Shown piece after piece: positions 16,689 to 44,529 of a stretch of DNA of 64,000 nucleotides. Every line of letters begins with the position of its first letter. Positions within the stretch are counted from its first letter, which is position 1. A program made the translations under genes and the position numbers. Source of the stretch: a bacterium (GTDB lineage Bacteria > UBA10199 > 2-02-FULL-44-16 > DYJF01); assembly GCA_041739675.1 (NCBI GenBank), contig JBGSNL010000003.1, positions 5,846 through 69,845 on the forward strand, given 5' to 3'. The notes under the pieces are model-generated. The model was not told the origin of the DNA. It searched no databases and saw nothing but the letters and a program-made list of their open reading frames with translations.

Positions 16689-17096
16689 TTATTTTTTGAT
16701 CGACATCGGCACTGCCAGCTCCATGATCTTCACGAACGGAAGGGCCGCAACCTGGGGAACGTCTCCGGCGGCAATGCTTCCGGTTGATATTTTTCCGATG
16801 ACGCTTCGACGGTGAAAACCCGCCTCGTCCAGGGATTTCTTTTCAGCGTTGGTTGGTTTGCCCTGTGTTTTCAGAAGGCACTCGAACGATTTTTCAAAAT
16901 CCTTTTTTGTCATCGCGTTTTCCCACGCCGACCTGAATCTGCCGTCGAGCTTTTGCCATCCCTCTGAAGATTTGAAGATTTCGATCTGAGAGACGGGTTT
17001 CGGCGCACTCTCTTTTGAATTTTTTCCGGCGCATGAAGTGAACACGGGCACTGTGATAAAAAGTGCAGTCAAAATAACAAGTTTGGTTGTCTTCAT
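16689..17096 (-). CDS. Small lipoprotein, unknown function
   Basis: MKTTKLVILTALFITVPVFTSC is a signal peptide with a lipobox. Confidence 0.5.
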   Translation of the reverse strand: MKTTKLVILTALFITVPVFTSCAGKNSKESAPKPVSQIEIFKSSEGWQKLDGRFRSAWENAMTKKDFEKSFECLLKTQGKPTNAEKKSLDEAGFHRRSVIGKISTGSIAAGDVPQVAALPFVKIMELAVPMSIKK

Positions 17097-17275
17097 GGCG
17101 GCGGATTATATTGGATAGAAGGTAATGTGTCAAAAAATCGTTTTCAAAATGAGGATATATCAGATTGATAGACCCACACCTTTTATAACTCATTGATATT
17201 TCATGGCTTATCTATTATTATTGTGGCACATGACTTGCTGTTCAAAGCAGTGCTGAACTTGTTAAGGAGGATTTT

Positions 17276-18301: not shown

Positions 18302-18323
18302 GGTGCGAATCTTGTCTGGGCAA

Positions 18324-18352
18324 GCCCGAGGGAGAAACTCTCGGGCTTTTTT
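18324..18352 (+). terminator. Rho-independent terminator after the 17276-18301 gene
   Basis: GCCCGAG-loop-CTCGGGC stem followed by TTTTTT. Overlaps the hemA stop codon. Confidence 0.65.
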
Positions 18353-26686: not shown

Positions 26687-26748
26687 ATTTCCACCTCTCT
26701 TAACCCCCTCGGAAATCATAGCACACATGCGCATTGGAGGGAAGCGGG

Positions 26749-28234: not shown

Positions 28235-29719
28235 ATGAGCATATTTTCCGACATTCTCTCCCAGCCGGCCGTTGTGGCGGCGATAGCCGTCGTCTTCATT
28301 ATATACTGGAGGATCGCGGCGAGAAGCACAAAGTTTCCGCATATACCGCTGGGTCTTTTCATACTTTACCTTCTGATTGATTTTGCGCGGATATTGCTGC
28401 TGTCTTACAACCTGCCTCAATGGGCGGCCCGTCTGGATCTCATCTCGATCATAGTCCTTTACTGCGCGGCGGCGCGTCTTGTCTTTTATGTCTTTGTCGA
28501 TATCTGGCTCACGCGCAAGCTCAAGTTCCAGCTTCCTAAAATCACGAGGGATGTGGCGCTTGCCGTCATATTTGCCGTCATCGTCATAATTCTTCTCCAC
28601 AAAAAAGGTGGCGTGAACCTCGCCTCACTTATCACCACGTCCGCCGTCCTTACGATGGTCATAGGTCTTGCGCTGCAGGACACGCTTGGAAATCTCTTTT
28701 CGGGGCTGGCGCTTCAAACCGAAAAACTCCTTCAGATCGGGGAGTGGATATCGTTCCGCGAACACGTGGGGCAGGTTGTGGGGATGACGTGGAAATCCAC
28801 GCTCATAAAGACGCTGGAAAACGAGATCGTCTATATTCCCAACAACGTGATCTCCAAAGAGATCGTGAAAAATTATTCGCGGCCGGAACCCTCCCATGTG
28901 GCATACATAGAGATAGGTATTCAGTACGAGGCGCCGCCCAACAAGGTGCGGGAAGTCATTTTAGACACCCTTGCGGAGTATGACAAGGTTCTGAAAGTTC
29001 CGCCTCCGCAAGTTCGTCTCATCATGTTCGGCGACCACGCGATAACTTATCAGATAAGATTCTGGAACAACGATTTCGGCGGGGAGAAGCTTCTCAAAGC
29101 CGAGATCATGAACATGCTCTGGTACGCGTTTAAGCGCAATGGCATACAGATCCCGTTCCCGATAAGGGATGTGCGTTTCCATCACGTCGAGCGGGCGAAT
29201 GAGGAACATAAAAGAGAGGGGATTCGCTCAGCTATTACGGCGAAGCTCAAAAATATTCCTGTCCTTACGCCGCTTCCGCCCGAGGACATCGAGCTTCTGG
29301 CAAAGCGTGTTTCATTTGAACTTTTTGGAAACGGCGAATCGATCGTCCATCAGGACGAGCTAGGCGATTCGATGTATATCATACACAGCGGCGGCTGCGA
29401 CATCGTCTTGGAGGGCGGTGAGAGAAAAGTCGTTGCCACTTTGAAGGAAGGGGATTTCTTTGGAGAGATGAGTTTGCTCACCGGCGAGCGGCGCACGGCG
29501 ACCGTCGTTGCGAAAGGCGACACAGAGGTTTTCATGATCGACAAAAAATCTTTTGCCGATATCCTAAAGGCTCATCCGGCCATCTCGGAAACACTGGGGC
29601 AGGCGCTTGTCACGCGCCAGACCTATCTTGCCGCAATGCAGGGCAGAAAAGAAGCTCCCTCGCCATCAGCCACCTCGCAGCTCGTATCCAAGATCAAATC
29701 ATTTTTTGGAATTGGATAA
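28235..29719 (+). CDS. Mechanosensitive channel (MscS family) fused to a C-terminal cyclic-nucleotide-binding domain
   Basis: N-terminal TM helices and an MscS-like core. C-terminal CAP-type cNMP-binding signature GDFFGEMSLLTGERRTATVVA. Confidence 0.75.
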   Translation: MSIFSDILSQPAVVAAIAVVFIIYWRIAARSTKFPHIPLGLFILYLLIDFARILLLSYNLPQWAARLDLISIIVLYCAAARLVFYVFVDIWLTRKLKFQLPKITRDVALAVIFAVIVIILLHKKGGVNLASLITTSAVLTMVIGLALQDTLGNLFSGLALQTEKLLQIGEWISFREHVGQVVGMTWKSTLIKTLENEIVYIPNNVISKEIVKNYSRPEPSHVAYIEIGIQYEAPPNKVREVILDTLAEYDKVLKVPPPQVRLIMFGDHAITYQIRFWNNDFGGEKLLKAEIMNMLWYAFKRNGIQIPFPIRDVRFHHVERANEEHKREGIRSAITAKLKNIPVLTPLPPEDIELLAKRVSFELFGNGESIVHQDELGDSMYIIHSGGCDIVLEGGERKVVATLKEGDFFGEMSLLTGERRTATVVAKGDTEVFMIDKKSFADILKAHPAISETLGQALVTRQTYLAAMQGRKEAPSPSATSQLVSKIKSFFGIG

Positions 29720-31429
29720 CAGCTTTTCGCTTGCAGCCAGACGGGCGCGGATATCCCGCTCATATACATCGAAATCGATAGTCTTGTAGCCCAATATGTC
29801 CGCGACTTCGTCGGCCGTGAGCTTGTCGCCGGCAAAAAAGAGTTTGTCCTTCAGAAATTTCCCGACATCCTTGTTTTCGTGCCATTTCCCGCCAAATTTC
29901 TCGGAGAGGGTATCATCGATTTGCGTGGCCAAAACGAACGAGCGGACGTAATCGACCGCGTAAAGGAACTCGTCGATATCGGTTAAATATCTTTCAGAGT
30001 CGGTGGCTTCCATCGGGAAGCCGTATGCTTTTTCAAAAAGTGTGCGATACATCTCCCGCTTGTCGGTGCTCTGCCCGTTGTAGATTCCGGCCCACCACTT
30101 GGGATCGTCGCCGTGATATGCCGATTCATAAACGAGCTTCGCGCCGCCGTATCTGCGCATGAAATAAAGATCGTTGAAGAGGGCGAAGCGCACAAGCTTT
30201 GCAATGTCGACATCGGTCAGTACGGGAACCTTTTTGTCGGCGGGCTGCTTTTTGTTCCACTCCACGATGAAATCGCGGTAGTAGCGCAGGAAATCGGGGT
30301 CCGAAAAACGGCCTTCGAAAAGACCCGCATAGGCCTCCGTTGCGGCGTAATCGCCCAGATATTTGAAGGCCCACTCGGGAACCGTCGTGTTGGCAAAATG
30401 TTCGGCGTGGCCCGTTTCATGGAAGAGAGGTGTGAAATCGCCGATGCCGCCCTGGGGGGCTATCGTCATCCTTATGTCGGAAGGGACGACAATGTTGTAG
30501 CACGCGGCGCGCGGATTTTTCTTGGGCCGCTGTTCGTCGTCCAAGAGAATCTGGTGGCCGTCCGCAGTCGTGAAATCAAGCCCTATGTCCGCCAGAAAAT
30601 ATTTGAGGAACGGGACCATCGCGTCGGCCGGAAAATAAGAGACGTAAGTATCGAGGCGGAAGATTTTCTGGAGATCGCTTCTTCGCATGTCCTCAACCTT
30701 CATGTTCAAAAGATCTTTTGCGTGTTCGGCGAGAAGCGTTTTGTAAATCGAATCGGTCTTCTTTCCAAAGTTATCTGCGTCCCTGATGATTTTTTTGAAA
30801 TCCTTAACGTTTCGCGCCTCAAGAGAGAAATCGAGATACGATTTATAGCCCAGGCTCTTTATTATCTCGTGGGCCTTCGCATCGCGCTCGGCGACAATGG
30901 GGTTGAGTTTCTCGCGCTGGACTTCGGCAGTCAGAAGCTGGAGCTCCTTGCGTTTTTTGGCGTCGTTCTCCTTGGCCATGACTATGGGGATCTCGCGGTA
31001 CGCCACCTCTTTTTTCAGCCACGGCACTTTTACGGTGGTTTTGGATTCCGTGTTGGTGAGTTTGTCGTCGAGCGAGACGACCTCGCGCCCGACGTGCTGC
31101 TCAACCAGATAATCCTTGAAATATGTCCGCGCGCGCTTCTCGTCTGGGGAGATTCCGGGTTCATTCATTTTTTCGTCCACGAACTTGATGGCGTCGGGCG
31201 TGAAGAGCCACTCGTAGCCTTTGTAGGTCGATTCAAAATCCACCGGCGTGCCCTTGATGCGGTTATTCCAAGACATCGTGGCCTGCGTGCGCATGAGTTC
31301 GTCGGCGGCTGAAATCATTTTGTCGAGTGTAAGTGGCCCCTGCGGTTTGGATTTGCCGGCGACCGATAAGCCTGAGTTCATAATCATTGCTGCCCCCATT
31401 AGAATTGTTAAATAAATTTTTAGACGCAT
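29699..31429 (-). CDS. Secreted zinc metallopeptidase (HExxH; M3/M32-like oligopeptidase)
   Basis: Start chosen at MRLKIYLTILMGAAMIMNSGLSVA (signal peptide). HETGHAEHF zinc-binding motif. Confidence 0.5.
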   Translation of the reverse strand: MRLKIYLTILMGAAMIMNSGLSVAGKSKPQGPLTLDKMISAADELMRTQATMSWNNRIKGTPVDFESTYKGYEWLFTPDAIKFVDEKMNEPGISPDEKRARTYFKDYLVEQHVGREVVSLDDKLTNTESKTTVKVPWLKKEVAYREIPIVMAKENDAKKRKELQLLTAEVQREKLNPIVAERDAKAHEIIKSLGYKSYLDFSLEARNVKDFKKIIRDADNFGKKTDSIYKTLLAEHAKDLLNMKVEDMRRSDLQKIFRLDTYVSYFPADAMVPFLKYFLADIGLDFTTADGHQILLDDEQRPKKNPRAACYNIVVPSDIRMTIAPQGGIGDFTPLFHETGHAEHFANTTVPEWAFKYLGDYAATEAYAGLFEGRFSDPDFLRYYRDFIVEWNKKQPADKKVPVLTDVDIAKLVRFALFNDLYFMRRYGGAKLVYESAYHGDDPKWWAGIYNGQSTDKREMYRTLFEKAYGFPMEATDSERYLTDIDEFLYAVDYVRSFVLATQIDDTLSEKFGGKWHENKDVGKFLKDKLFFAGDKLTADEVADILGYKTIDFDVYERDIRARLAASEKLLSNSKK

Positions 31430-31541
31430 GGTTTTCCTCCCGTTTGTAAAGTTCTGATAGCCCAAGCTCTTTCCAGAGTCCACCCTTTTCCTTTGACAGG
31501 TCAAACGGGCGCAATTACGCTTGGAAACGCGGAGGTGATTT

Positions 31542-31712
31542 ATGCAAATTACACGCAGACAATTCGGGCTGGCGATGGTCCTTGGAGCTTTGGCATTGGC
31601 ACTTTCAAGGATGTTCGGATTTCTTTTCCATAAGAGACCGGCTGACAGGGAAGTTTCGGGCGGAGGATACCCCGCCAAATACTGGAAACGCGCGGATCAT
31701 TTGGGCGGATAG
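31542..31712 (+). CDS. 56-codon small ORF encoding a twin-arginine-type signal peptide (leader/uORF or 5' duplication remnant)
   Basis: GGAGGTG RBS 4 nt before the ATG. MQITRRQFGLAMVLGALALALS is Tat-like (TRRQF followed by an h-region). Ends 20 nt before the Memo-AMMECR1 start. Confidence 0.3.
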   Translation: MQITRRQFGLAMVLGALALALSRMFGFLFHKRPADREVSGGGYPAKYWKRADHLGG

Positions 31713-31731
31713 TGTAAGCAAAGGGGGCGCC

Positions 31732-33201
31732 ATGCAGAGACGCAACGTTTTTTATATCTTGCTTGCGGCGTGTCTTCTTTTTCCGGGCGAGGGCTGCTCC
31801 AAGGTTAAGGCCCCGGCCGAAAAGAAGGCGGAACAGACAGTCGTGAAACCCGCAGTTGCGGGGGCGTTTTATCCCGCCGACAAAGAGATATTAAGCACGA
31901 CAATCGAAAAATATTTGAACGAGGCCGCTCCTGCGCCTGTGAGCGAGCACATATTCGGTATCGCGGTCCCGCACGCGGGTTATCAATATTCGGGGCCGGT
32001 CGCGGCATACGCCTACAAATCGATAGAGGGGAAAAAATATTCGACTGTTGTCGTCATGGCCCCGTCACATCGGGTCGGTTTTGAAGGTATCGCCCTCACG
32101 ACAAAGGATTTTTACGAGACGCCGCTGGGCCGGATCCCCATCGCAAAAGAGCTCTCGCAAAAACTCATGAGCGATTTTTCCTGGGCCAAAGACGATCCGC
32201 GCCCATACGGTATTGAGCATTCACTTGAGGTGGAGCTCCCCTTTTTGCAGACGGTGCTCAAAGATTTCAAAGTCCTTCCCATAATAGTCGGCGTTACAAA
32301 TCCCAACATGCTTTCAAAGCTGGCGGCAAAATTGAACGAGATGCTCCCCGGCGGGGATGTCCTTTTTGTCGCGAGCACCGATCTTTCCCACTACCACCCT
32401 TATAATGATGCGGCGGCGAGGGATAAAAAGACCATAAAAATCATCGAGGATATGAACGTTGCGGCGTTCGCTGCGGCGGAACTGAAGGGGGAGGCCGAGC
32501 TTTGCGGCGGCGCACCTGTCGAAACGCTCATGGAGATCGCAAAGCTTAGAAAGGGCAAGGCGAAGCTTGTGAAATACGCCAACTCCGGCGACGTTACGGG
32601 CGACAAGTCGCGCGTCGTGGGCTACGGGGCTTTTGTGTTCACAGGCGGGGCGGCAGCGGAAGAGGGTGCTCTTTCGGAGACGCAGAAAAAAACGCTGCTC
32701 GCGATTGCGAGAAATTCGATCGAGGCCGAGGTGTCAGGAAAGCCGCAGCCAAAGTTTGACATAAAAGATCCCGTTCTTCTCAAAGACGGCGCGGCATTTG
32801 TGACCATCAGGGAACACGGGGATTTGAGGGGCTGCATCGGCCACATCATGGCGGTGGGGCCGCTTTACAAATCGGTGCGCGATAACGCCGCCTCCGCGGC
32901 ATCGCAGGACCCGCGTTTTCCTCCGGTGAGGCCGGATGAACTTAAAAATATCGATCTTGAAATATCGGTTCTCACGCCGCCAGAGCCTCTTTTAAAACCG
33001 ATGGATGTCAGGATCGGAACCGACGGTCTCATCATACAAAAAGGATATAACCGCGGAGTCCTTCTGCCGCAGGTTCCCGGCGAGCAGGGCTGGGGAAAAG
33101 AAGAGTTTCTGGAAGGTATCTGCCGCAAGGCCGGCATGTCCGCCGGCTGCTGGAAAGACGCCAACCTCATGCGCTTCCAGGCTATCGTTTTTCATGAATA
33201 A
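31732..33201 (+). CDS. Memo-like (AmrB) and AMMECR1 (AmrA) fusion protein with an N-terminal signal-like segment
   Basis: Memo motifs AGAFYP, APSHRVGFEG and DLSHYH. C-terminal AMMECR1 motif LRGCIGHI. N-terminus MQRRNVFYILLAACLLFPG is signal-peptide-like. Confidence 0.75.
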   Translation: MQRRNVFYILLAACLLFPGEGCSKVKAPAEKKAEQTVVKPAVAGAFYPADKEILSTTIEKYLNEAAPAPVSEHIFGIAVPHAGYQYSGPVAAYAYKSIEGKKYSTVVVMAPSHRVGFEGIALTTKDFYETPLGRIPIAKELSQKLMSDFSWAKDDPRPYGIEHSLEVELPFLQTVLKDFKVLPIIVGVTNPNMLSKLAAKLNEMLPGGDVLFVASTDLSHYHPYNDAAARDKKTIKIIEDMNVAAFAAAELKGEAELCGGAPVETLMEIAKLRKGKAKLVKYANSGDVTGDKSRVVGYGAFVFTGGAAAEEGALSETQKKTLLAIARNSIEAEVSGKPQPKFDIKDPVLLKDGAAFVTIREHGDLRGCIGHIMAVGPLYKSVRDNAASAASQDPRFPPVRPDELKNIDLEISVLTPPEPLLKPMDVRIGTDGLIIQKGYNRGVLLPQVPGEQGWGKEEFLEGICRKAGMSAGCWKDANLMRFQAIVFHE

Positions 33202-33210: not shown

Positions 33211-35031
33211 CTATTGCGCTGTGCCCAGTTTCTGCCGGATGGAAGTGATCATTCCCGATATCTCTGCGTCCTGTTGCATGTCGGCGGGCATCAGTTGAAA
33301 CATGCTTTCAAAGAATTGCTTTGTGAAGTCGGAGGGTCTTCCATTAAGCGTAAATCCGTCGGCGACTACATGTAACGCTTCAGTAGCAGTATTTCTTTTT
33401 CCCAGAATCCAATCTATGCTTGATGTTATGAATAAAAATTCAATTTTAGAGATATCAAAAAATGTTTCGTCGCCAAAAGTCTTTACCAATGGATTTCCCA
33501 TCCATTTTTTAACTATGTAAACCGTCAAATTGTGTTGCACGTCATTGCGGTTTTCAGACTTCAATTGGAGACAGTGAGCGAGATCATTTATTGCCATGCT
33601 CAAATTCCCCTTTTGTAACCAGATAGTGCCACGGACAAAAAAGTAGTTTGAAGATGAGTAGATGTCGATGGCTTGTGTGCAAAAGTCTATTGCATCATCT
33701 AATGAATTCATTTGCCGCGAAATATTGCTAAGGGCGAGAAGTGCGTTAGCATTCATGTCATCCAACAGAATTGCCGTGCGCGCAGCATCTTCGGCTGCTG
33801 CTAAATTGTTATCTTGCACCAATAGGCAAGCTGAATTTGAATAAAATATGCTTAATGCTTGGCGCAATGCTAGAGGGAAATTTTTGCGATATTGCGCATC
33901 GCTTTGATAAAATATTGGATCAAAGAGACGTCGTTGATTATCAAGTTGCAGGCTGATGCAGAAATGATTGAAATCCGGATTGGATTTTGTCGCTCTCTCA
34001 AGTAGGGTGTTAGATCGTGTTCTGAGGCTTTCAGGGCCATCTAACAACGCGACGTCTTCCACTCCAAGACTTACCTGAAGAAATATGGGGTTGAGCCCAG
34101 CAGTTTCAAATACCGAAAAAAGGATCTTGGAGACCTCTGAACAATCTCCCTCGGTCCTATTAATGGCTTCTAGTGCCGTGTATTCCACCTCATTATATTT
34201 CGGACGCAGGCCGCCTCGACGCACGAGAAAATTTGCGAATTCTCCGAATTCAAATTTATTCAGTTCTTCGTTGGCGTAAAGCAAAAAATCCGGATTCAGT
34301 GTGGACAAGCCGGCAGGAGGAGTCGTTGTAAGCCAAAAAAGACCAAAGGCAAGCCGCTTTTTATATTCCTCCGTTCCTTCTACAAAGCCCTTTCTTGTTA
34401 TGATATCCTTTAGCAGGTTGATTGCGTCTGTCACTTTCGTTTGAATATCTTCATCAAAAGTTGTTTCCGGATTCAAGTCGTCGAGCACCCACGGGAGGGG
34501 ATGGCCAAGTGTGGCCTCTATGAGATTTCGAAAACGCTCATAGTTGTTCATGGCATATTCAAAGACCTCTTGAGAATCTATTTTCAGGTCATTGGCCCCT
34601 TTGATGCAGGATTTTTCTTCCTGTGACGCACAATATTTGCCGTCGAAATTTATGACATTGTAACCTTTATCAATATCACTTTGCGCAACCCCTTCTCTCA
34701 AAAGACCCTGATATAATTTGTATGCCTGCGGATTGTCCGACTCCTCAAAATTTAACGTTATCCTCGGAGCGGACGGCTCGCTTCCTTTATTTGTACAACC
34801 CGCTCCGAAAAGCATGAAGGGCCAGCCGAAAACTATTGCGGGGAGCATTGCTGGTTTTTCAGCATAGAAATCATAAACAGTTTTTACTCCATCAACGATT
34901 GCGCCCGGCGCAGCATCAACGGTTTCTTTTGCCGTCTCCGCTATGGTTTCAAGATCCGTGCAGTAATCGCCTATGCACGCCTCGTAATTGAATGGATTTA
35001 GGTCGCTCCAGCTGATGCCGCCAGAATACAT
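33211..35031 (-). CDS. Family member A: conserved N-terminal module (MYSGGISWSDLNPFNYEACIGDYCTDLETIAE), an internal hydrophobic segment and TPR-like repeats
   Basis: RBS GGAGGAAAC then ATG. 32-residue N-terminal near-identity with the 42247-44529 protein. No Sec signal. TPR-like C-terminal half. Visibly more A/T-rich than its neighbours. Confidence 0.6.
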   Translation of the reverse strand: MYSGGISWSDLNPFNYEACIGDYCTDLETIAETAKETVDAAPGAIVDGVKTVYDFYAEKPAMLPAIVFGWPFMLFGAGCTNKGSEPSAPRITLNFEESDNPQAYKLYQGLLREGVAQSDIDKGYNVINFDGKYCASQEEKSCIKGANDLKIDSQEVFEYAMNNYERFRNLIEATLGHPLPWVLDDLNPETTFDEDIQTKVTDAINLLKDIITRKGFVEGTEEYKKRLAFGLFWLTTTPPAGLSTLNPDFLLYANEELNKFEFGEFANFLVRRGGLRPKYNEVEYTALEAINRTEGDCSEVSKILFSVFETAGLNPIFLQVSLGVEDVALLDGPESLRTRSNTLLERATKSNPDFNHFCISLQLDNQRRLFDPIFYQSDAQYRKNFPLALRQALSIFYSNSACLLVQDNNLAAAEDAARTAILLDDMNANALLALSNISRQMNSLDDAIDFCTQAIDIYSSSNYFFVRGTIWLQKGNLSMAINDLAHCLQLKSENRNDVQHNLTVYIVKKWMGNPLVKTFGDETFFDISKIEFLFITSSIDWILGKRNTATEALHVVADGFTLNGRPSDFTKQFFESMFQLMPADMQQDAEISGMITSIRQKLGTAQ

Positions 35032-35104
35032 GTTTCCTCCTGTCAATCCTGTCAGGGATAGGTCATATCTAATTGATCGGGCGATGTATAGAGGAAATTG
35101 GGCC

Positions 35105-35141
35105 AAAAAAAAGGCCACTTGGTTGCCCAAGCGGCCCTTTT
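35105..35141 (-). terminator. Bidirectional Rho-independent terminator between the BNR lipoprotein gene and gene A
   Basis: 10 bp stem GGCCACTTGG / CCAAGCGGCC with loop TTGC. A-run on one side and T-run on the other. Confidence 0.65.
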
Positions 35142-35155
35142 TGGTTTCATTTCAA

Positions 35156-37753
35156 TTAGTGCGTTATTATCATCGGACTCAATGGCCTTGTCATGACTCT
35201 GAATGAGCTCGAAGGTTCAGTCGGCGTTTCCTCCGATGTCGGCGGAGCGGCCCCAACATCCACGCCACCCATGGTAGAACCGTCTCCGACTGCAGAGACT
35301 TTGTAGGTCACCTTAGCACCGGAAACAGTTGCTGCGATGGCGACGCTTCTCACTTCGCCCAGGTCAACCGCTTCGGGTGAATTGAGTACCGACCAGAACT
35401 CTCCGCCGTTGCGTGTGACCGCCATGCCAGTCGCTGTTCCTGCGAGAACGACCGGTCCGGTCTCATCCTGATTGTAAGCGGGATCGATTGCCAGTGATAG
35501 AACTGGGCCGGCAAGAGTCCCGGTTGTTTTCGTCCAGTTTGCGCTATCTTTATTGCTCACGTATACGCCGTCATCGGTTCCTGCGAAGAGCATGTCCGAC
35601 TTGGCGTCATAGGCGATGCTGTACACCGGTTGCGTACCGTCAAGCGCTCCACCTACAAACTGTGCCCAGCCTATTCCATTGCCGCTTTCGTTGACGTAGA
35701 CTCCACTGTTGGTTGCGGCGAAGATTTTTGTTCCGACTTCTTCCAAGTCATGCGCAACCTTTGAACCGTCTCTCGAATAGACGCCGTTCGTATCTTGATT
35801 TCTTGCCCCGATCCACGGTGTTCGCACTCTGTCCGCCGCGTGCTTGGCGGCATCCTCGGTAACGAGTATTCCGCGGTCATAGGCAACGATCAGGCGGCCG
35901 TCTTCTTTTGCTATCATGTCGCAAATCTGCCCCATCGAAACGATGTCGGCTGAGCTTGGTGCGTTGGAGATGCCGGTCTGTGTCTTGCCCGCGCACGTCT
36001 TATGGCTGCCCGAATATCCATCTCTCCTTGCGTAGAAGAAGATGTCGAACGGTTTCCAATCGCTGTCTTTTTCTCCTCCATTAGTTGTATACATGATGAG
36101 ACCGGTTGTGCCTACGTAAACAACGTTCGGATCGCCCTTTTTCACCGCGATGGCGTTCACGGGATAGGTTTTCACATAATTTGAGAAGAAATTGTTGTTC
36201 TGCCAGAGACCTCCGAGTTCAAAGGCATTCTTTATCGGATCCTCTATGCCGATGCCGTCCGCAAGTTCCTTGCTATCGGCAAAATTGCTCAGGCGATATA
36301 CTGAAATTTCACCGAATGCTTCGCGTTTCACGCCGTAATAGAAACGGCTTGCATCATTGGGATCGGCTATGACGCGTGTCACGGGCAATGCGTCACCAAC
36401 ACCGCCATGGAAGAACTGATGGCTCATCATCGGGATGATGCTCTGGATAGGATGTTGTGTCTCGGGAGTAGAAATTCCGATACGATTAATGACAATCGGG
36501 ATTCCCGACAAATCCGGGACCCTTGCTTTCACCTTTGTTCCTGCGACGAGATCTGCCTTATTAACGGCCTTACCGCCAACCGTGAGAGAGTCGATTCCGC
36601 TCACCGTTGCGGCGTCAGCCTGCACTTCAATCTCAACTTCTTCGGAGACGAAAGCCCACGGGCCGGCCTTGATGTCGAGGGCTGTCGTGTTGCCGCTCTG
36701 AAGGGCTACGACGACTGCGGCGCGGGCGCTATTCTCGCCCACCTGAGCGATCATGTCGAAGCGTGTATCAGAGGTCAGCGTGCAGAGGCTGTCCTGCATT
36801 CCGCCGGTCAAAACCTGTGCGGTCGGGAGCGCGGGCTCGCACGTCACGGGCTTGTCTGCTGTTACAGTCACCTGTGCACTTGCGGGGATCGCTTCATAAT
36901 GGACCGTTACTTGATCGGTGAAATTTGGAACCGTCACCAACGCTTCTTGTCCGTTGGCAGTGATCGTCGCTCTGATGTTGGATGCGTTGACCTGAATCGT
37001 GACGTCGTCGGTCTTTTCCTGACCGTCGGCGCATATGGCCTCAACAGTGTATTTCGTCGTCGCGGAAGGCGTCACCGTAGCTTCGCCTGACGTCGGGAAC
37101 GTATCGGCAACCGGCGTTCCGTCAGCTGCCACAACAGTTACCTGCGTCACGTCCGGACTTGCCGTCCATGTGATCGTCGTCGGGTCGCCGGCATTTACAG
37201 GAGTATCGCCTGCGCCGGATACGATGTCTACCGAACATTCGGATGCCGCAACTACAGCTACTGTAATAGTAGCCTGCGAGGTCACCGGTCCTGTCGGTAC
37301 AGGGTTCTCGGAAGGTGTTGGAACCGGCGGTTCTCCCGGAAGCGGTATCTGACCGGACTTGGACAGTTTGGATATGACGACTATCGCAGCCGCGCTTTCA
37401 TCGGCCGCCGCAAAAGTCTTGGATGCGGTGAGGATAAAGTCCGTCGTGTTCGTTATGCCATCCACCTGTGTGGAGCCCGAAAGCTCTTCAAAGGGGCCGG
37501 CATGGAACTGGAACACACCCTCCGGTGCTGATGCGACCTCTATCGAGTCCGCGTCCTCCACTTCCCAGTAGATCGTCGTGGATCCGCCAAGCGGAACCTG
37601 AGGCGGATCGGCCCTGAAGACCTTGATCACCGGTGGAGGCGGCGTGATATTCGCGCTCTGGCCGAGCTGAAGCTCGCCGTCGGAGCACGCGGCTGCGAAG
37701 GCCGCAATCGCGACCACCGCTATCATCCGCCATATTTTCGTTGTGTTCATCAT
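35156..37753 (-). CDS. Large lipoprotein with Ig-like domains and BNR/Asp-box (Ycf48/sortilin-like) beta-propeller repeats
   Basis: MMNTTKIWRMIAVVAIAAFAAAC is a lipoprotein signal. Repeated S-x-D-x-G-x-x-W-type Asp-box motifs (TNGGEKDSDW, SNKDSANWTK, TRNGGEFWSV). Thr/Val-rich Ig-like repeats. Confidence 0.6.
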   Translation of the reverse strand: MMNTTKIWRMIAVVAIAAFAAACSDGELQLGQSANITPPPPVIKVFRADPPQVPLGGSTTIYWEVEDADSIEVASAPEGVFQFHAGPFEELSGSTQVDGITNTTDFILTASKTFAAADESAAAIVVISKLSKSGQIPLPGEPPVPTPSENPVPTGPVTSQATITVAVVAASECSVDIVSGAGDTPVNAGDPTTITWTASPDVTQVTVVAADGTPVADTFPTSGEATVTPSATTKYTVEAICADGQEKTDDVTIQVNASNIRATITANGQEALVTVPNFTDQVTVHYEAIPASAQVTVTADKPVTCEPALPTAQVLTGGMQDSLCTLTSDTRFDMIAQVGENSARAAVVVALQSGNTTALDIKAGPWAFVSEEVEIEVQADAATVSGIDSLTVGGKAVNKADLVAGTKVKARVPDLSGIPIVINRIGISTPETQHPIQSIIPMMSHQFFHGGVGDALPVTRVIADPNDASRFYYGVKREAFGEISVYRLSNFADSKELADGIGIEDPIKNAFELGGLWQNNNFFSNYVKTYPVNAIAVKKGDPNVVYVGTTGLIMYTTNGGEKDSDWKPFDIFFYARRDGYSGSHKTCAGKTQTGISNAPSSADIVSMGQICDMIAKEDGRLIVAYDRGILVTEDAAKHAADRVRTPWIGARNQDTNGVYSRDGSKVAHDLEEVGTKIFAATNSGVYVNESGNGIGWAQFVGGALDGTQPVYSIAYDAKSDMLFAGTDDGVYVSNKDSANWTKTTGTLAGPVLSLAIDPAYNQDETGPVVLAGTATGMAVTRNGGEFWSVLNSPEAVDLGEVRSVAIAATVSGAKVTYKVSAVGDGSTMGGVDVGAAPPTSEETPTEPSSSFRVMTRPLSPMIITH

Positions 37754-37782
37754 ATCCTAAGCCCCTTTCTTCCTTAGATTGC

Positions 37783-39708
37783 TTATTGACCTATCCCAGG
37801 AAACGTTACTCCAAGTGTTGTAGAAACCGCCCAGTCGAAACCGTATTCTTCACCGGTCATGCTTGCCCCATCTCTCCCCATGAGATCGAGAGCTAACTCG
37901 CCAGTCAGCTTGCTGCCGTCGTCTCCGAATGGCGTTTCAAAACCAAGCTGTAAGCGTCCGACTGGCGAATCGTATCCTCTGTCATCACAGAAGGTATTCC
38001 CAGTGTCGGATTCAGTGAAACACGCATCGCCGTGGTTTCCGTAGTACAACATTGATACACCGGGAATCAGTTTGAATCTATCGGAGATACTGATCGGGAA
38101 ATTGGCGTATGCTTCCATATCGATGCGATACGCTTCGTAAGGCTGAACCGCTCTCCATGCATACGCTGTCAGAAGGTTCAATCCTATGACGACGTTTTCA
38201 TGGACTGTTCCTTCGATTTCAAGTTTTACTCTGACGACACCGGTTGCATCTGCGAGACCATAGCCGCCTACGGAACCCCCGATCGTAAGATCACCGTCTA
38301 AAAGATCTGCGCTTGCACCGACAACTGCGCCGCCGCCGTTTTCGCCGGTAACTGCGTCGGTCGTGGTTGTCACTTCACCGGTCGCCGGATCGGTCGTAGG
38401 GATGAGTCCGATGGATACACTCTGACCGCCGACGGCTTCGGCTGTAAGGGTCACATTATCTGTCACGGGGTATCGCATGCTGACATCCGCTCCGGCGAAT
38501 GATCTGCCGAAGAGCGATACCAGACCGCCGTTAACTCCGACGAATCCGCGCTTCTTGAATACTTCGTTTTCCGTTAAGAAGTAGTTCGCGCCTAAGGCAA
38601 GGTCCGTGATGTTGGCGGAATCGGATATTCCGTTGACAAGCTGGAGCAGTGCAATATCTTCGCTAGTAACCCTGTAATCCTGAGATCCCGCGGCCTCGAT
38701 TTTCATGCGAAGCAAGTTGATTGCCCAGTCTTTGATTACATAGGCGACGCCGCCGTCGAAGGAGAGCTCGCCTGACCATCCCAGAGAGCCGAAACCGCCC
38801 GATCCGCTTGCTACAAGACGCCAGAGCCAGCTTTCATCGTCATCAAAATTGACGACGCCCGGCATTCCACCCCCTGTGGGCCCTGCCACTACCGGATAGC
38901 GCGCAAGTTCAACGGTAATAATGCTGATTTCGTCTGCGCTGATAACTGTGTCGCCGTCAGTGTCCGAACCGGCTACGGTCACGTTGCTGATATAAGTTGT
39001 AAACAGGCGATTTAAAAGACCTTGCGCATCAAGATTTTCATCCCGCTGAATCTGGTCAATCTGTCCCACTAAGGCATCACCTATGGCCTCTTGGACATCG
39101 GGGTTGTCCTGCAAATTATCAGGCACCTGCGACATTGCGCTTTCATGCAGGCCGATAATTACGTCTCCTGTGGGCCTTCTGTACTGGCGATTTTGAAATG
39201 CTTCGGTGAGAGGATCGACCAGTGCATCTATCCCATTCAGAGTCGATCGCTGGACATTGTAATCCAAGAGATCCTGATTAGCCAAATCTCTCAGTGTCGT
39301 ACCCTCTAATGCCAACTCGCGCGCTTTACCGAACCAAGCTGGATATGTGAATCCTTCAAAGAACGGGATTATCTTGAGCGACTCTGATTGTGCCTGACGA
39401 AGCAAAGCTATATCCAAGCCGTCGACGGCTTGAGCTGTGCACTGATCGGCAGCTGTATATGCCGGATTGGAGTCTTCGCCCGGGTTCAACTGAAATGCGT
39501 ACCGGAGGCATGCCGATGTCGCCGATTCTGTTCCGACCATAACATATGTGTCATAGATACGAAGTTGTGCCGGAGTTAGGTCTTGCACGTTAGTGTCGTA
39601 CAGTCCTTCCACTGTAGTCCGGCACTCGGCGTTTTCCAGACCGCACATAGCAGTCGTTATTTGCCCACGATATTGGCTCTGACTGGTTACTTGTCCACCT
39701 GGCAACAT
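37783..39708 (-). CDS. Family member D: MLPGG N-terminus, beta-rich Gly/Asp-rich protein, no Sec signal
   Basis: RBS AAGGAGGAAAC then ATG, identical to gene A. Begins M-L-P-G-G. 29 nt upstream of the BNR lipoprotein gene. Confidence 0.5.
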   Translation of the reverse strand: MLPGGQVTSQSQYRGQITTAMCGLENAECRTTVEGLYDTNVQDLTPAQLRIYDTYVMVGTESATSACLRYAFQLNPGEDSNPAYTAADQCTAQAVDGLDIALLRQAQSESLKIIPFFEGFTYPAWFGKARELALEGTTLRDLANQDLLDYNVQRSTLNGIDALVDPLTEAFQNRQYRRPTGDVIIGLHESAMSQVPDNLQDNPDVQEAIGDALVGQIDQIQRDENLDAQGLLNRLFTTYISNVTVAGSDTDGDTVISADEISIITVELARYPVVAGPTGGGMPGVVNFDDDESWLWRLVASGSGGFGSLGWSGELSFDGGVAYVIKDWAINLLRMKIEAAGSQDYRVTSEDIALLQLVNGISDSANITDLALGANYFLTENEVFKKRGFVGVNGGLVSLFGRSFAGADVSMRYPVTDNVTLTAEAVGGQSVSIGLIPTTDPATGEVTTTTDAVTGENGGGAVVGASADLLDGDLTIGGSVGGYGLADATGVVRVKLEIEGTVHENVVIGLNLLTAYAWRAVQPYEAYRIDMEAYANFPISISDRFKLIPGVSMLYYGNHGDACFTESDTGNTFCDDRGYDSPVGRLQLGFETPFGDDGSKLTGELALDLMGRDGASMTGEEYGFDWAVSTTLGVTFPGIGQ

Positions 39709-39769
39709 GTTTCCTCCTTAATTTCCCCCGATTCACCTTCAATTCATCTCAATTTGAAAAAACTCCTTC

Positions 39770-39882
39770 ATAATTATCTAGGTATGCATGCGATTCCGTC
39801 ATCCGGTGCTCCATAAGCCATGTCAGCGGGTCCGCCGATTTCAGTCGGGCGTACTCTGATCTCTCTGCACGCCGCTTGTGTC
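39770..39882. repeat. DNA-level repeat, copy 1 (3' end of gene C plus its 3' UTR). Near-identical to 42242-42350.
   Basis: Shares the exact runs GTCAGCGGGTCCGCCGATTTCAGT and GGGCGTACTCTGATCTCTCTGCACGCC and overall high identity with the second copy. Confidence 0.7.
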
Positions 39883-41204
39883 GGTTGCGTCGGTTCAGTC
39901 GGCTGAGTCTGCTGATTCGGCACGCAATGTCCGTGGTCTCTGTGTTCTCCAGGAGGACACGTGCGCGGCGTGGTCGGCCTTACAGGCGGTGTCACAGGCG
40001 GTGTCGGTTCGGTTGCGACCGGCTCTGCGGGAACAAATCCATAGATGCTGTTCATGATCCACTGCACGAGTTCCCTGCGCTCCGGATCGGAAATGAATCC
40101 AAGATATACGTTCATCACAGCATCAGAAGGTCTCTGTTCGGGAAGAGCGCAACTGCTAAAAAGTTTCGCAAGGGCATCGCGTGCTCTTGCAATGTAGGTA
40201 TTGGCGTACTCGGCCTGTCCCGTCGCCTGCGAACTGTTGGCCGCTCTCACATACCATGCGGCCATGACGATGTCGGCCATCTGGTTGTCCTGAAATTTCA
40301 CTGTCGAAGACAGGGCGGTCAGGGCCGCTTTTACCTGAGTTTCATTGAGGCCTTCAACCGGCGCAACTGCGGCCAGGAAGTAATCGATCGGGAAGGTTGC
40401 GGATGTTATCGTGCCGCAAGTCGTCGCACCGAATTTTTTGAATGCTTCCTGAACGGCCGCGATATAGGCGTCCACATTTGTGTTTGCCTCGGCCGCAAAT
40501 GACCATCTGGCCTGCGCGATGTTGCTGTACTCGCCAACGTAATCGAGGACGTCCGGATGCCACGTTGTGACGCCGGAGAGTGTGAGAATGTCGAAGATCT
40601 GTTTCTGTTCGCCGGCGTATCTGGATTCAATGTTGACATTCACGGGAACGCGTTCCGGCGTAAAGTACGTTCCGTCCGCCCACGTATACCACTTGTCGAC
40701 GTGGCACACGTTGTCCATGGTGAAAGGTCCCGTCCATGATTGCGTCATCGTCCAGTCTATTGCGTTGTCCGCCGTGAGACCTTTTTCACGTCCCCACAAA
40801 GAAAGAAGGGATCTGAACGAGGCATTGGTCATTCTTGCGTTGATCTGAATGTCGTTTTGTATGACCTTGCAGTAGCTGTCTTCCGGATTGAAATAAGTTC
40901 TTGGAGCTACGGGAGCTGCAGGAGCCGGTTGAGGCGCCGGAGCTGCTGTTTCCGGTTTTGCTGCGTCTTGTGCGACAAGTGCTACCGTTTCATCATCTTC
41001 ACCGCAGGCCGATGCTACAGCAACGAAACCTGTCACTGGCAAAACAATTTCAGGCGCCAAAATTGCAGCCGCTACCCATGCGGCGGCTCCCAGAGCCGCC
41101 AAGAGGTCTTCAGGATCTTCATGTGAAGCATTGGCATGCAATTGGCCGGTTGCAAAATCGTGTTCCCATTTTACGAGTCCGCCATCAAATCCACCTGAAA
41201 ACAT
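39774..41204 (-). CDS. Family member C: MFSGG N-terminus, internal hydrophobic segment ending VASAC, C-terminal Cys-bracketed motif
   Basis: RBS AAGGAGGAAAT then ATG. C-terminal ACREIRVRPTEIGGPADMAYGAPDDGIACIPR is shared with the 42247-44529 protein. A Pro-rich linker precedes it. Confidence 0.55.
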   Translation of the reverse strand: MFSGGFDGGLVKWEHDFATGQLHANASHEDPEDLLAALGAAAWVAAAILAPEIVLPVTGFVAVASACGEDDETVALVAQDAAKPETAAPAPQPAPAAPVAPRTYFNPEDSYCKVIQNDIQINARMTNASFRSLLSLWGREKGLTADNAIDWTMTQSWTGPFTMDNVCHVDKWYTWADGTYFTPERVPVNVNIESRYAGEQKQIFDILTLSGVTTWHPDVLDYVGEYSNIAQARWSFAAEANTNVDAYIAAVQEAFKKFGATTCGTITSATFPIDYFLAAVAPVEGLNETQVKAALTALSSTVKFQDNQMADIVMAAWYVRAANSSQATGQAEYANTYIARARDALAKLFSSCALPEQRPSDAVMNVYLGFISDPERRELVQWIMNSIYGFVPAEPVATEPTPPVTPPVRPTTPRTCPPGEHRDHGHCVPNQQTQPTEPTQPTQAACREIRVRPTEIGGPADMAYGAPDDGIACIPR

Positions 41205-41397
41205 ATTTCCTCCTTACAAACTAAATAAGCCCGAGGACGCGCTGAATTTCATCGTTACGCTACCCAGTTGCATTATCGGATGACCCCCAAAAATGTTGCG
41301 TCCTTTTTTCTACCATCCCCCTCAATTCGCCCACTTCTTGGTGGGAACCCGCCGAAGTTTCAGTGGCGGGGCCCTCATCCTTATTTTCGTGCGAAAT

Positions 41398-41440
41398 AGA
41401 AAAAAGTTGCGCGGTATTTTTAAGCAATACCGCGCAACTT
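41398..41440 (-). terminator. Rho-independent terminator after gene E (14 bp perfect stem)
   Basis: AAGTTGCGCGGTAT-loop-ATACCGCGCAACTT followed on the minus strand by a U-run. Confidence 0.7.
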
Positions 41441-41466
41441 GTAATACGCTGATATTATTAAGTATT

Positions 41467-42213
41467 TTAGTGCTGTCCTTGTGCCCCTTGGCCTGCTGTC
41501 CACGGCACTTGGAATCCGCGTCCGGTGCCCGCATCGGCTGCAGGAGGAGGAGAAGGAGGAGGTGGCGGCGGCGTGGTCGTCGGACCGCCTTCACTCGAAC
41601 ACCTTTCAGCAGCCCTTTGCCTTGCACACTCGATATCCCCTTGGCATTGTGTAATTTCCGTGGCTGTTGGCTGGCAATTACTAGTAGATGGCGGCTGCTC
41701 GTTCATTTCGCGATGTGAACATCTGTCTTGAATACAAGCCGCGTAATCTTGAACATCCGGTCTTGAACATAATACTGTGTCTGAAGGTGTCGGCACACAT
41801 TCATAATGTGCCTGGCATTCTGTTCCCGCCAGGCCGGCTCGTATGTCGTCAACGGAACAAGGCGGCAACTGTGTGGCAACGTTTTGGCCGCTTAGTCTGT
41901 TTGCAAGCTCGAGCAAGAAGGAGGCAAAAGTATATGTACCGCCCCACAAGTTGATGCCTCCGTTTGATGAGCACATTTCGTTTGATTCAGCGGTGGGGCA
42001 AGTTTTGAATATCGTGTTTGCGATCACATAAGCAAAGCCTTCAAAAATAGCTTTAAGATTTTCCGGCACACGCTGCAGGTTGAGCGTGTAGGTATTGGTC
42101 GTATCCTGTACGCACTGAGTTATCTTGTCTTCAGTCTGCTCATTAGCGCATGCGAGCGAGGTGATTCTATCAAGCGTACTTCCGACATTTTGCGTCTGTC
42201 CTGCTGAAATCAT
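41467..42213 (-). CDS. Family member E: MISAGQ N-terminus, Cys-rich and Pro-rich small protein
   Basis: RBS AAAGGAGG then ATG. M-I-S-A-G fits the family start. Many Cys residues. C-terminal poly-Pro stretch (PPPPPPSPPP). Confidence 0.45.
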   Translation of the reverse strand: MISAGQTQNVGSTLDRITSLACANEQTEDKITQCVQDTTNTYTLNLQRVPENLKAIFEGFAYVIANTIFKTCPTAESNEMCSSNGGINLWGGTYTFASFLLELANRLSGQNVATQLPPCSVDDIRAGLAGTECQAHYECVPTPSDTVLCSRPDVQDYAACIQDRCSHREMNEQPPSTSNCQPTATEITQCQGDIECARQRAAERCSSEGGPTTTPPPPPPSPPPAADAGTGRGFQVPWTAGQGAQGQH

Positions 42214-42241
42214 AAGGCCTCCTTTTGAAGCGTTGTTCAAT

Positions 42242-42350
42242 ATAAATTATCTGGGTACACAAGCAATGCCGTCATTTGGCTCTCCATAAGCTCTGTCAGC
42301 GGGTCCGCCGATTTCAGTTGGGCGTACTCTGATCTCTCTGCACGCCGGAG
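42242..42350. repeat. DNA-level repeat, copy 2 (3' end of gene B plus its 3' UTR). Near-identical to 39770-39882.
   Basis: Same exact runs as copy 1. Conservation extends past the stop codon into the AATTAT-rich 3' flank. Confidence 0.7.
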
Positions 42351-44529
42351 GCGGAGGAGGTGGTGGTGCTACGACTATCTTGCAATTATCGTCACAATTC
42401 GGAGTGCCGTCGCATTCCTCGCCGCGTTCCACTCTGCCGTTGCCGCATTCGATGGTAGGCGGTGGAACCGCATTCCTTGTGCAATCGTTTCTGCAGCCGT
42501 CGTTGTTATTTGTATTTCCGTCGTCGCACTGCTCGCGTCCTTCCACAACATGATCGCCGCACCTGATCGTGTGCACAGGCTCACCTTGAGGTGTCACGCA
42601 CGAACCGGCTAAACCCGTCGTCGTCGCCTGTCCGTCGGGGCACGGTTCGCAGCTGCAATCTTCCGGATTGAGCACTTGCGGCGGTGTGTTCTGGCTGAAG
42701 CACCACTCTGCGGCAGTCATCTGCATGTTGCACTGCTGCGTAGCCTCAACGAACATCCTGGCAGGGCTCTGCTCATGGCAGCACTCTCCCGGCGTGACAA
42801 CATGCGGCTGCCTTATGCGGTCTCGCAACGTTTCTTCTCCATGTATCGGCTGTCCACCCAGCGGCCAGAAGTCGAAGGCGATTCCGTCATTCATCTTCTG
42901 GATGTATTCAAGCAGAAGGCGTGACCAGTAGTGGTCATCGGCGCAGGTGGGGCAACGATCATACGAGCGTTGTACCGCACCGTTGATCTCCTTTAGTATC
43001 TCCGTCCTGATCGTCTCTTTGGTTTCACCCGCGCGGCGCCAGATATAATCGTTGGCGTATTGGCGGATGGACATCCTCATGTCGAGCCCCGTCGCTGGAT
43101 CGGCAAAGCCTCCCATGACGAGAATGATGTTGTCCTGCTCGTCCAACTCGACCCACCACTCGCCCGTGTCTATCTTGCCCGTGCTGTCCGCGTTTGACAG
43201 TTCGTCCCAGCGCATGTGGTAAATGGCGGCTGTCTGGAAATACAAAGATGCGGCATGGCCCGCCAAAGGTGTAGCCCAATCAATACGGTTGGACTGCGCG
43301 CGGCCCGGAGTTCCCCAATCGATGTCCCGCCAGGTGAAATCGAAGTCGAACTTATGCATATCGGGGTATTTGACCCCGGCGGCTGCGGTCATATTCATTA
43401 GCACAAGCTCGTATCTTTGGACCGCGTCGGGGTTGTTGTTAGAAAGGTCGGTCATAAGCACGGAGACTTCGTTCATCCTATTCCTGATATCATCTTGTAT
43501 TTGACCTATTAAAACATCATCCGCTTCAATGATAGTCTGGTCTTTCCCATCACTTACATCTTTCTCTCTTTTGGCGACGGCTTCTTCAAGTTTCTTGAAG
43601 AGGTCTTGGAGGTTGAAAGGCAAGCGCCGGAGGTTATCTTCCAGCGCATATTCCAGCGGCGTCCTGGGCAGAGTATAATCTGGTTCGAAGAATTTCTTGA
43701 AATCCTCAAGGAAGGCGGCGCGAACGTCGGGATAACGCGATGACACCAGCAGATTTGCAGTGTGGTTGAGATACTCCGTGGCCTCTACGAGATTCGGGGG
43801 CCAGAAAAACCAGCCGGGTATTGCGCTGGTGAGCCTTGTCGCCTCCATCAGTTTTATGATGGACCATACTCTCGAATCATCGTCATTGAGACCGTTTGAA
43901 AAACTCCAGAAAGAGGCGGGCGTGTCCGACCACGTCCAGAAGCCGTCGGTTTCAAGGATGTTGCGTCCGCATATGACGTCTTTGTGATCGGGGTTGTAGA
44001 TGCGCCACGCATTAAAGGAACAAGTATCTTGCGCCCCGAAAAAGCCCGTAAAGTTGCCGGGGTGGTCGGAGCAGATAATTCCACCGTGCACCATCGAGCC
44101 CCAGAATTCGAAAGACTCCTGGCTTCCGCGCGAGCGACATGCGCCGAGGTCCTCGTCGTAATAATCAGTGAGCGATTTGTCGGCAAGCTCATCATAGTTG
44201 ACATAGTCCTCTCTCAGATATTTCCTTTCAGCGAGAGGCGTTGTCTCTTTTCTGGGGTCGGGCGTGGGGATTTCGTTGCCGCCACAGCCCGCGCCTAAAA
44301 TACTGAGCGCCACTTTTCCGATCGCACGCTCCGGCGCTGTAAAATTATCGACGAAATTCCCAAGTGGATCGTCGCTCGTGACGTACGCCTCTTCCAACGC
44401 TTCACGAAAGAAATTGTTGGCTGCGGAGTACTGTTCGGCAACTGTGTCCAAACTGGTACAGTAGTCACCTATGCACGCTTCATAATTGAACGGATTAAAG
44501 TCGCTTAATGAAATGCCCCCTGAAAACAT
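42247..44529 (-). CDS. Family member B: conserved N-terminal module, Myxococcus-type cysteine-rich repeats and the C-terminal Cys-bracketed motif
   Basis: RBS AGGAGGCAAC then ATG. MFSGGISLSDFNPFNYEACIGDYCTSLDTVAE matches gene A. C-terminal region has CGDHVVEGREQCDDGN...DGC and CGNGRVERGEECDG repeats. The last 31 aa match gene C. Confidence 0.6.
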   Translation of the reverse strand: MFSGGISLSDFNPFNYEACIGDYCTSLDTVAEQYSAANNFFREALEEAYVTSDDPLGNFVDNFTAPERAIGKVALSILGAGCGGNEIPTPDPRKETTPLAERKYLREDYVNYDELADKSLTDYYDEDLGACRSRGSQESFEFWGSMVHGGIICSDHPGNFTGFFGAQDTCSFNAWRIYNPDHKDVICGRNILETDGFWTWSDTPASFWSFSNGLNDDDSRVWSIIKLMEATRLTSAIPGWFFWPPNLVEATEYLNHTANLLVSSRYPDVRAAFLEDFKKFFEPDYTLPRTPLEYALEDNLRRLPFNLQDLFKKLEEAVAKREKDVSDGKDQTIIEADDVLIGQIQDDIRNRMNEVSVLMTDLSNNNPDAVQRYELVLMNMTAAAGVKYPDMHKFDFDFTWRDIDWGTPGRAQSNRIDWATPLAGHAASLYFQTAAIYHMRWDELSNADSTGKIDTGEWWVELDEQDNIILVMGGFADPATGLDMRMSIRQYANDYIWRRAGETKETIRTEILKEINGAVQRSYDRCPTCADDHYWSRLLLEYIQKMNDGIAFDFWPLGGQPIHGEETLRDRIRQPHVVTPGECCHEQSPARMFVEATQQCNMQMTAAEWCFSQNTPPQVLNPEDCSCEPCPDGQATTTGLAGSCVTPQGEPVHTIRCGDHVVEGREQCDDGNTNNNDGCRNDCTRNAVPPPTIECGNGRVERGEECDGTPNCDDNCKIVVAPPPPPPPACREIRVRPTEIGGPADRAYGEPNDGIACVPR

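Follow-up and report, generated by a model that had tools for sequence, protein, structure and literature searches.

A six-gene cluster with a conserved D-F gene pair and a shared N-terminal tag as a candidate hypervariable envelope module of the Bdellovibrionota

A cluster of six minus-strand genes, B, E, C, D, F, and A in the order of their transcription (Table 1), was analyzed in a 64,000-nucleotide stretch of a bacterial genome (GenBank assembly GCA_041739675.1, contig JBGSNL010000003.1, positions 5,846 to 69,845; hereafter the window). The cluster is read here, with moderate confidence, as a lineage-specific and hypervariable envelope module of the Bdellovibrionota whose members, except F, share a short N-terminal tag acting as a pre-export leader tag. 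This reading draws on gene order, synteny, the tag itself, lipoboxes, the Cys pattern, the fold of F, and terminators, from which we infer a location for D, a role for the tag, and a biological role for the module. In outline, D, probably an outer-membrane protein, would pair with the lipoprotein F, and Cys-rich accessory proteins (A, B, and C as lipoproteins and E as a copy of the D N-terminal domain) would evolve fast around the D-F pair. The tag would head a 60-75-residue leader preceding the lipoprotein-type signal of A, B, and C, and processing would remove that leader; as a leader or sorting tag on the cytoplasmic side it would direct all members along a common pathway of export and assembly to form a variable complex at the surface, which could plausibly make contact with prey or other surfaces.

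Conservation and divergence of the cluster

Full-length homologs of F (n = 13 in 5.8 billion proteins; relatives of F 26-61% identical) were identified only in Bdellovibrionota-type contigs, the named records belonging to a Bdellovibrio sp. metagenome-assembled genome (MAG) and a Pseudobdellovibrionaceae MAG. A large D-like gene was found directly 5' of F in the loci L002, L003, L005, L006, L008, L011, L013, L017, L019, L027, and L028, such that D-F adjacency was maintained in every locus with upstream sequence and across at least four different genomic neighbourhoods. Judged from this gene order, D-F is the conserved core of the module and D specifically is the conserved partner of F. The earlier note on this DNA had regarded the six genes as a dedicated surface-structure or adhesin-like module rather than a random neighbourhood and had proposed a search for F orthologs next to genes of proteins with MxSGG-type N-termini; F orthologs indeed adjoined such genes in every locus with upstream sequence, and this synteny in different genomic contexts, together with the tag, supports a dedicated module, plausibly with a role in the envelope or at the surface.

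The cluster of close relatives occupied the same chromosomal slot, between an aminotransferase/MMPL pair and a Memo-AMMECR1 gene, with varying gene number and content. More distant relatives (L006, L008, L017, L019, and L027, with F 26-32% identical) carried it in another neighbourhood where D-F was kept and small tagged genes were often present 5' of the pair, and A was frequently missing in relatives. Identity to the relatives graded from 60-81% in the flanking genes through 40-61% in F to at most 31% over partial alignments in D, and to 30-40% or undetectable levels in the accessory proteins. The locus L013 had the closest flanks (72% for Memo-AMMECR1 and 81% for the aminotransferase) yet an F of 40% identity and a different accessory set, which suggests replacement of the whole island or its very fast divergence. 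Given these identities, the locus behaves as a hypervariable island whose chromosomal site is fixed.

Searches with the other members returned little. An exhaustive HMMER search of D against 1.84 billion representatives recovered two relatives, a homology search with B found no match other than B itself, and a nine-sequence D-like profile retrieved D only, apparently because low-complexity words dominated the search. No informative family match in Pfam, NCBIfam, PHROG, or the sequences of the PDB was obtained for D, B, C, E, and ten accessory proteins of relatives, apart from one TIGR02232 repeat in B. A viral origin was rejected on the basis of no meaningful PHROG matches and no relatives in viral contigs.

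The shared N-terminal tag

Five of the six members (all but F) opened with a pentapeptide of Met, a hydrophobic residue, two small residues, and Gly. Across the window and its relatives, 29 tagged cluster genes fitted M-[FILKY]-[SAPGC]-[GACS]-G, and the tagged starts sat 5-7 nt behind an AGGAGG-like, near-perfect Shine-Dalgarno site. In relatives, the tag headed every D-like gene and the majority of the accessory genes 5' of F. The 13 D-like proteins followed M-[FILK]-[ASPGC]-[GAC]-G with Gly5 in 13/13 and Q, E, K, D, or N at position 6, and the 16 accessory proteins followed M-x-S (14/16)-G/A-G (16/16). Within the window, the combination of tag and Shine-Dalgarno start occurred in the five cluster genes only, and in approximately 316 kb of fetched loci 29/31 such starts fell in these clusters. 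No family model of Pfam or NCBIfam covered the N-termini. Literature searches on Bdellovibrio secretion signals, double-glycine leaders, propeller lipoproteins, and hypervariable surface loci yielded no account of the family or the tag, and a study of Bdellovibrio secretion used classical Sec signals only.

Several features pointed to selection on the tag as protein. Each of the four bases occurred at the wobble position of the Gly codons in the tag, and position 4 varied among Gly, Ala, Cys, and Ser; both findings indicate protein-level selection. Of the differences between A and B in codons 1-32, 14 were synonymous and 6 non-synonymous, so that this 32-residue stretch is under selection as protein. 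The tag also persisted between D orthologs of at most 30% identity whose next 20 residues were unalignable. Since processing of A, B, and C at their lipoboxes would remove the tag, its role would be before or during export. This speaks against F, the plausible anchor or chaperone of the earlier note, merely holding the tagged mature proteins. A possible though doubtful proposal is that the tag is an unrecognized export or sorting signal of the Bdellovibrionota, which would move D and E, lacking Sec and Tat signals, across the inner membrane by an undescribed route and would also mark lipoproteins with 60-75-residue leaders.

Known N-terminal signals were compared with the tag and rejected. A prepilin-type signal was discarded as no hydrophobic helix follows the Gly, and a Tat signal as there is no RR. 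The double-glycine leader, usually 15-30 residues ending in GG, did not fit as the tag is too short with GG at positions 4-5, and no C39-peptidase ABC exporter was found in the 64 kb window. A transglutaminase Gln substrate was dismissed as position 6 is also E, D, K, or N.

The D-F pair and the D-like protein E

D starts MLPGGQ and contains 11.9% Gly and 8.3% Asp. Its AlphaFold2 model was built on a 3-sequence alignment and reached a pLDDT of 36, such that only the secondary-structure pattern is usable; in this low-confidence model residues 1 to approximately 225 were helical and beta structure was confined to the C-terminal two thirds, with long strands predicted at residues 234-636 and strands of 13-16 residues in the C-terminal 100 or so residues. 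The earlier description of D as Gly/Asp-rich and beta-rich was thus correct for composition and, at the confidence of this model, needs restriction of the beta structure to the C-terminal part. A Phe or Trp was the last or second-to-last residue in the D-like proteins of L001, L002, L003, L005, L011, L019, L027, and L028 and in P0021. D itself had no signal peptide, transmembrane segment, or lipobox, no hydrophobic segment was present in the 12 D-like proteins tested (maximum KD19 of 1.74; maximum KD15 in the first 140 residues of 1.46), and an in-frame stop 4 codons 5' of the D start excluded an alternative upstream start. No Pfam family, DUF560 (PF04575) included, matched D and 8 relatives at E-values up to 1, and the D profile had no match in the PDB.

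E starts MISAGQ, has 14 Cys and a Pro-rich tail after its D-N-like domain, and is a stand-alone paralog of the D N-terminal domain (hhalign probability 97.8%, E-value 9e-13); no hydrophobic segment or lipobox was detected in it. The Cys pattern of D and E resembles that of exported proteins, though Sec, Tat, and lipoprotein signals are all absent, and no recognized signal explains the route by which they pass the inner membrane. Most likely the D N-terminal domain is disulfide-bonded and the predicted beta C-terminal domain sits in the outer membrane.

As a separate observation, D of the window (37783-39708) lacked approximately 250-400 middle residues compared with its orthologs of 864-1415 aa (L002:7251-9965, L003:6886-9957, and L005:354-3164), the N-terminal domain and the beta C-terminal domain being kept in frame.

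The lipoprotein F comprises about four Ig-like domains followed by a 7-bladed beta-propeller, and the propeller and Ig-like domains previously read from its sequence were recovered. F had no match in Pfam, all matches to propeller-family profiles were below cutoff (NF045728, 38 bits, cutoff 175), the F orthologs gave only faint PSII_BNR or Sortilin-Vps10 matches, and F was not assignable to a catalytic family. SDGEL followed the lipid-anchor Cys in nearly all F orthologs examined, with variants in L008, L017, and L019.

Conservation at the start of F extended beyond this motif. The F signal peptide (MKNTSRIWRL...AACSDGEL) was unusually well conserved among relatives, and a comparison of the window with L005, L006, L008, L011, L013, and L028 revealed DNA-level conservation of the D-F intergenic region (37754-37782) and the ribosome-binding region of F (aAGAAAGGGGtTTAGGAT ATG AAA AAC...) even at approximately 30% F identity. 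Both features suggest that translation is coupled, that the D:F ratio is regulated, or that the signal peptide and residues +2 to +6 have a function.

Accessory proteins A, B, and C

A starts MYSGG and combines a leader domain common to B, a lipobox, a transglutaminase-like core, and TPR repeats. The TPR repeats scored 28 bits against PF07719 (cutoff 27) and their profile strongly matched TPR structures. C297, H356, and D371 of the putative catalytic core (G-D-C-S-E ... H ... D) were kept in a 42% identical ortholog, which scored 18.9 bits against Transglut_core (PF01841; cutoff 23), while A itself had no match. B starts MFSGG and combines a near-lipobox ending at Cys82, an unknown Cys-rich body with 27 Cys, a myxo-type repeat, and a C-terminal Cys-loop. 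C also starts MFSGG and has a lipobox at Cys67 and a C-terminal Cys-loop; its body is of unknown type, and orthologs of it occur in L002 and L003.

Lipoboxes were searched with the core {DERK}(6)-[LIVMFWSTAG](2)-[LIVMFYSTAGCQ]-[AGS]-C, following the logic of PROSITE PS51257. The core had a single match each in F (Cys23), A (Cys79), and C (Cys67), and a single match at C32-C90 in proteins of the relatives L002, L003, L011, and L013. The Cys of A, B, and C at residues 67-82 lies behind a 60-75-residue leader and hence outside the usual limit of approximately 35 residues; A, B, and C thus appear to carry displaced lipoprotein-type signals with predicted processing at the lipobox Cys. The earlier note had called the family members other than F signal-less, which does not hold for A, B, and C with their hydrophobic stretch and lipobox-type Cys, and had named F the sole member with a classical lipoprotein signal, which is literally true, as only F has the Cys within about 35 residues after a charged n-region.

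The leader modules were portable, A and B having one 32-aa leader on unrelated bodies and L002 and L011 another. Loops of the form RP..EI..G...C, related to the B/C Cys-loop, ended four L002 paralogs and one in L011, and L013 had its own ending, PCCS...C.DGC, on four paralogs. In the window, 17 codons of the B/C Cys-loop were almost identical in DNA, pointing to recent gene conversion.

Table 1. Genes and sequence features of the cluster in the window (window coordinates)
Feature	Position	Strand	Details
Gene B	42247-44529	-	760 aa
Gene E	41467-42213	-	248 aa
Gene C	39774-41204	-	476 aa
Gene D	37783-39708	-	641 aa
Gene F	35156-37753	-	865 aa
Gene A	33211-35031	-	606 aa
N-terminal tag sites	35017-35031, 39694-39708, 41190-41204, 42199-42213, 44515-44529	-	plus 24 equivalent starts in the loci of relatives
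B N-terminal tag MFSGG	44515-44529	-	5 nt after AGGAGG
B short hydrophobic stretch and GAGC (Cys82)	44284-44316	-	one Lys off the PROSITE lipobox core
B cysteine-rich acidic repeat	42478-42564	-	TIGR02232, 33.8 bits (cutoff 20.8)
B C-terminal Cys-loop (ACREIRVRPTEIGGPAD..DGIACVPR)	42250-42366	-	77% identical to the C C-terminus
Intrinsic terminator 3' of E	41398-41440	-	15-bp perfect stem 41440-41404, T-run to 41398
C displaced hydrophobic segment and lipobox VASAC (Cys67)	41004-41069	-	
C C-terminal Cys-loop	39777-39893	-	
D N-terminal domain	39034-39708	-	predicted helical; invariant C22, C29, C67, C90
D C-terminal all-beta domain	37786-39009	-	predicted; strands of 13-16 residues
F lipoprotein signal peptide and lipobox (Cys23)	37685-37753	-	PROSITE lipobox core
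F beta-propeller domain	35255-36382	-	
Intrinsic terminator 3' of F	35105-35137	-	stem 35137-35113 with one G.U pair, T8 35112-35105
A displaced hydrophobic segment and lipobox LFGAGC (Cys79)	34795-34851	-	
A putative transglutaminase-like catalytic core (C297, H356, D371)	33919-34143	-	
A TPR repeats	33532-33831	-	

Competing explanations

Several points weigh against an envelope module with a pre-export leader tag. In seven cluster open reading frames (ORFs) of relatives the strict tag is missing and the start is MxGP or another sequence, the window encodes no exporter or processing enzyme and the neighbours are housekeeping genes, and all relatives are uncultured. The model of D, with its pLDDT of 36 on three sequences, gives only a strand pattern, and the window's D ends in the non-aromatic ...TFPGIGQ, likewise for L006, L008, L013, and L017. 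In addition, codons 2 and 3 of the tagged genes are biased, with TTT for 13/13 Phe at codon 2 and TCA for 17/18 Ser and GCA for 6/6 Ala at codon 3, although TCA and GCA make up 14% and 22% of the codons for Ser and Ala, respectively, in the genes of the window. This strong bias makes an RNA-level or translation-initiation component of the tag also likely. That the tag is mainly such an element (Shine-Dalgarno followed by AUG-UUU-UCA-GGN-GGN) for high or coordinated expression, with the proteins localized otherwise, would account for the AGGAGG-like site 5-7 nt upstream of all tagged genes, but it is rather unlikely given that the wobble bases of Gly4-5 are free, the residues at position 4 are alike in their small side chain and not in nucleotides, and A/U-ending codons near starts are general and leave the invariant Gly5 unexplained. 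Nor would a translation element account for the export of D and E, which lack a signal and are rich in disulfides.

The tag would be incidental if D were a dedicated outer-membrane translocon for F, and perhaps for A-C, similar to Slam or type XI systems. The likeness lies in the module, with a lipoprotein gene adjoining D in a conserved adjacency, in the helical N-terminal and beta C-terminal domains of the low-confidence D model that match the Slam layout, and in the strongly conserved residues after the lipid-anchor Cys of F (CSDGEL). However, D has neither DUF560 or another Pfam or PDB match nor a signal peptide, its barrel fold is putative, F is built of Ig-like and propeller domains and is not TbpB-like, and gene order and lineage differ, leaving a translocon of this kind distinctly unlikely. 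Alternatively, the locus could be a predator's polymorphic effector or toxin cassette in which the accessory proteins, including the protease-like A, are delivered to prey with D and F as the port. Such a role would suit modular termini on variable bodies (the A/B N-terminal domain and the B/C C-terminal motif), lineage-specific Cys-loop endings on 2-4 paralogs per locus, the putative Cys-His-Asp core of A, and the extreme divergence of the locus between relatives; it is quite improbable, as the family libraries (the PADLOC library left out) revealed neither a known toxin domain nor small genes of an immunity-like kind, and no secretion-system genes are nearby in the window. The Gly/Asp-rich D without signal peptide might suggest an RTX-like adhesin secreted by a type I system, or a tail-fibre module from a prophage. 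This is highly improbable, considering that PHROG gave no meaningful match, no relatives occur in viral contigs, RTX repeats are absent by Pfam and NCBIfam, ABC, MFP, or C39 genes do not occur near the cluster, and the Cys-rich cluster proteins are atypical of type I substrates. Lastly, the recent gene conversion in the B/C Cys-loop could be taken to mean that the six genes are unrelated and their common N-termini a relic of recent duplication, but this is barely credible with the tag retained between highly divergent D orthologs, the synteny in four different contexts, and a start motif almost exclusive to the clusters.

Comparison with known systems

The proposed envelope module with its candidate leader tag was also compared with other surface systems. 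The extended signal peptides ESPR of type V secretion and KxYKxGKxW and YSIRK of Gram-positive surface proteins share with A, B, and C a terminal motif, a long spacer, and a hydrophobic core, and, as shown by A and B, a leader module portable between unrelated mature domains; the motif is unrelated in contrast, the signal ends in a lipobox, and the tag also heads core-less proteins of the D/E type. With Myxococcus TraA, the module has in common the TIGR02232 Cys-rich repeat of B and a locus polymorphic between relatives, but PA14 and MYXO-CTERM matches and a TraB-like OmpA partner are missing and the architecture is unrelated. F differs from BNR/Asp-box and GH74-type propellers and from PorZ of the type IX system in its sub-cutoff profiles, four N-terminal Ig-like domains, and lipid anchor. 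A is presumably comparable to LapG-type or transglutaminase-like cysteine proteases with TPR repeats (SirB1-like) based on its G-D-C-S-E ... H ... D signature followed by TPR; the differences are that PF01841 is sub-threshold and found in the ortholog only and that A has no BTLCP match. Barrel-plus-lipoprotein modules and extended signal peptides are already known, and the module resembles both in layout, with no detectable homology to them and no match to the family models of either.

Transcription units and genomic neighbourhood

The intergenic gaps of 33 nt (B-E), 65 nt (C-D), and 29 nt (D-F) reported earlier were reproduced from the gene coordinates. The start codons of A-E were identical in NCBI-derived protein-collection entries, and the entry for F was 864 aa, beginning at the second ATG. 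The hairpin 3' of E folded with a dG of -24.2 kcal/mol (z -7.1; 0/200 shuffles folded as well) and is strong as had been proposed, with a stem of 15 bp instead of 14 bp. The terminator 3' of F was likewise upheld as a strong hairpin with T8 (dG -27.6 kcal/mol, z -4.1; no shuffle matched its folding), and the relative L003 has a 13-bp palindromic hairpin directly 3' of its F gene, in agreement. On account of the two strong terminators, the suggested division into three transcription units (B-E, C-D-F, and A) is plausible. Scanning the window for Rfam families and tRNA genes gave no match.

The neighbours of the cluster in the window included haem biosynthesis genes, ribonucleotide reductase, ThyX, MnmG, and similar genes. 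The haem biosynthesis set (9814-19619) coded for glutamyl-tRNA reductase, URO-D, a HemN-like radical SAM protein, ferrochelatase, and a protoporphyrinogen oxidase-like protein, and a subtilase gene (14478-16676) was located inside it. Two minus-strand genes encoded proteins with an N-terminal signal and no Pfam match: an 837-aa protein (24221-26734) with lipoprotein signals in its orthologs, and a 659-aa ORF (29699-31678) with secretory signals in its orthologs of approximately 570 aa. Both were syntenic in L001, L002, L003, and L005, untagged, and apparently outside the cluster. The plus-strand Memo-AMMECR1 fusion gene (31582-33201) converges on A; 9 nt separate the two stop codons, and a search for hairpins in this interval found none. 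In L028, a 211-aa ORF (L028:6982-7617) between F and the Memo-AMMECR1 gene has an H-x-H-type motif (...HTHFHLL...) and by eye is possibly an IS200/RAYT-like transposase.

Implications

The main reason for interest in this cluster is that no recognizable signal accounts for the passage of D and E through the inner membrane. If the tag is a sorting signal, it would be a new way of addressing envelope proteins and a handle on the machinery. The locus, at a fixed chromosomal site in a predatory lineage and diverging far faster than its flanks, is a candidate surface or prey-recognition determinant.

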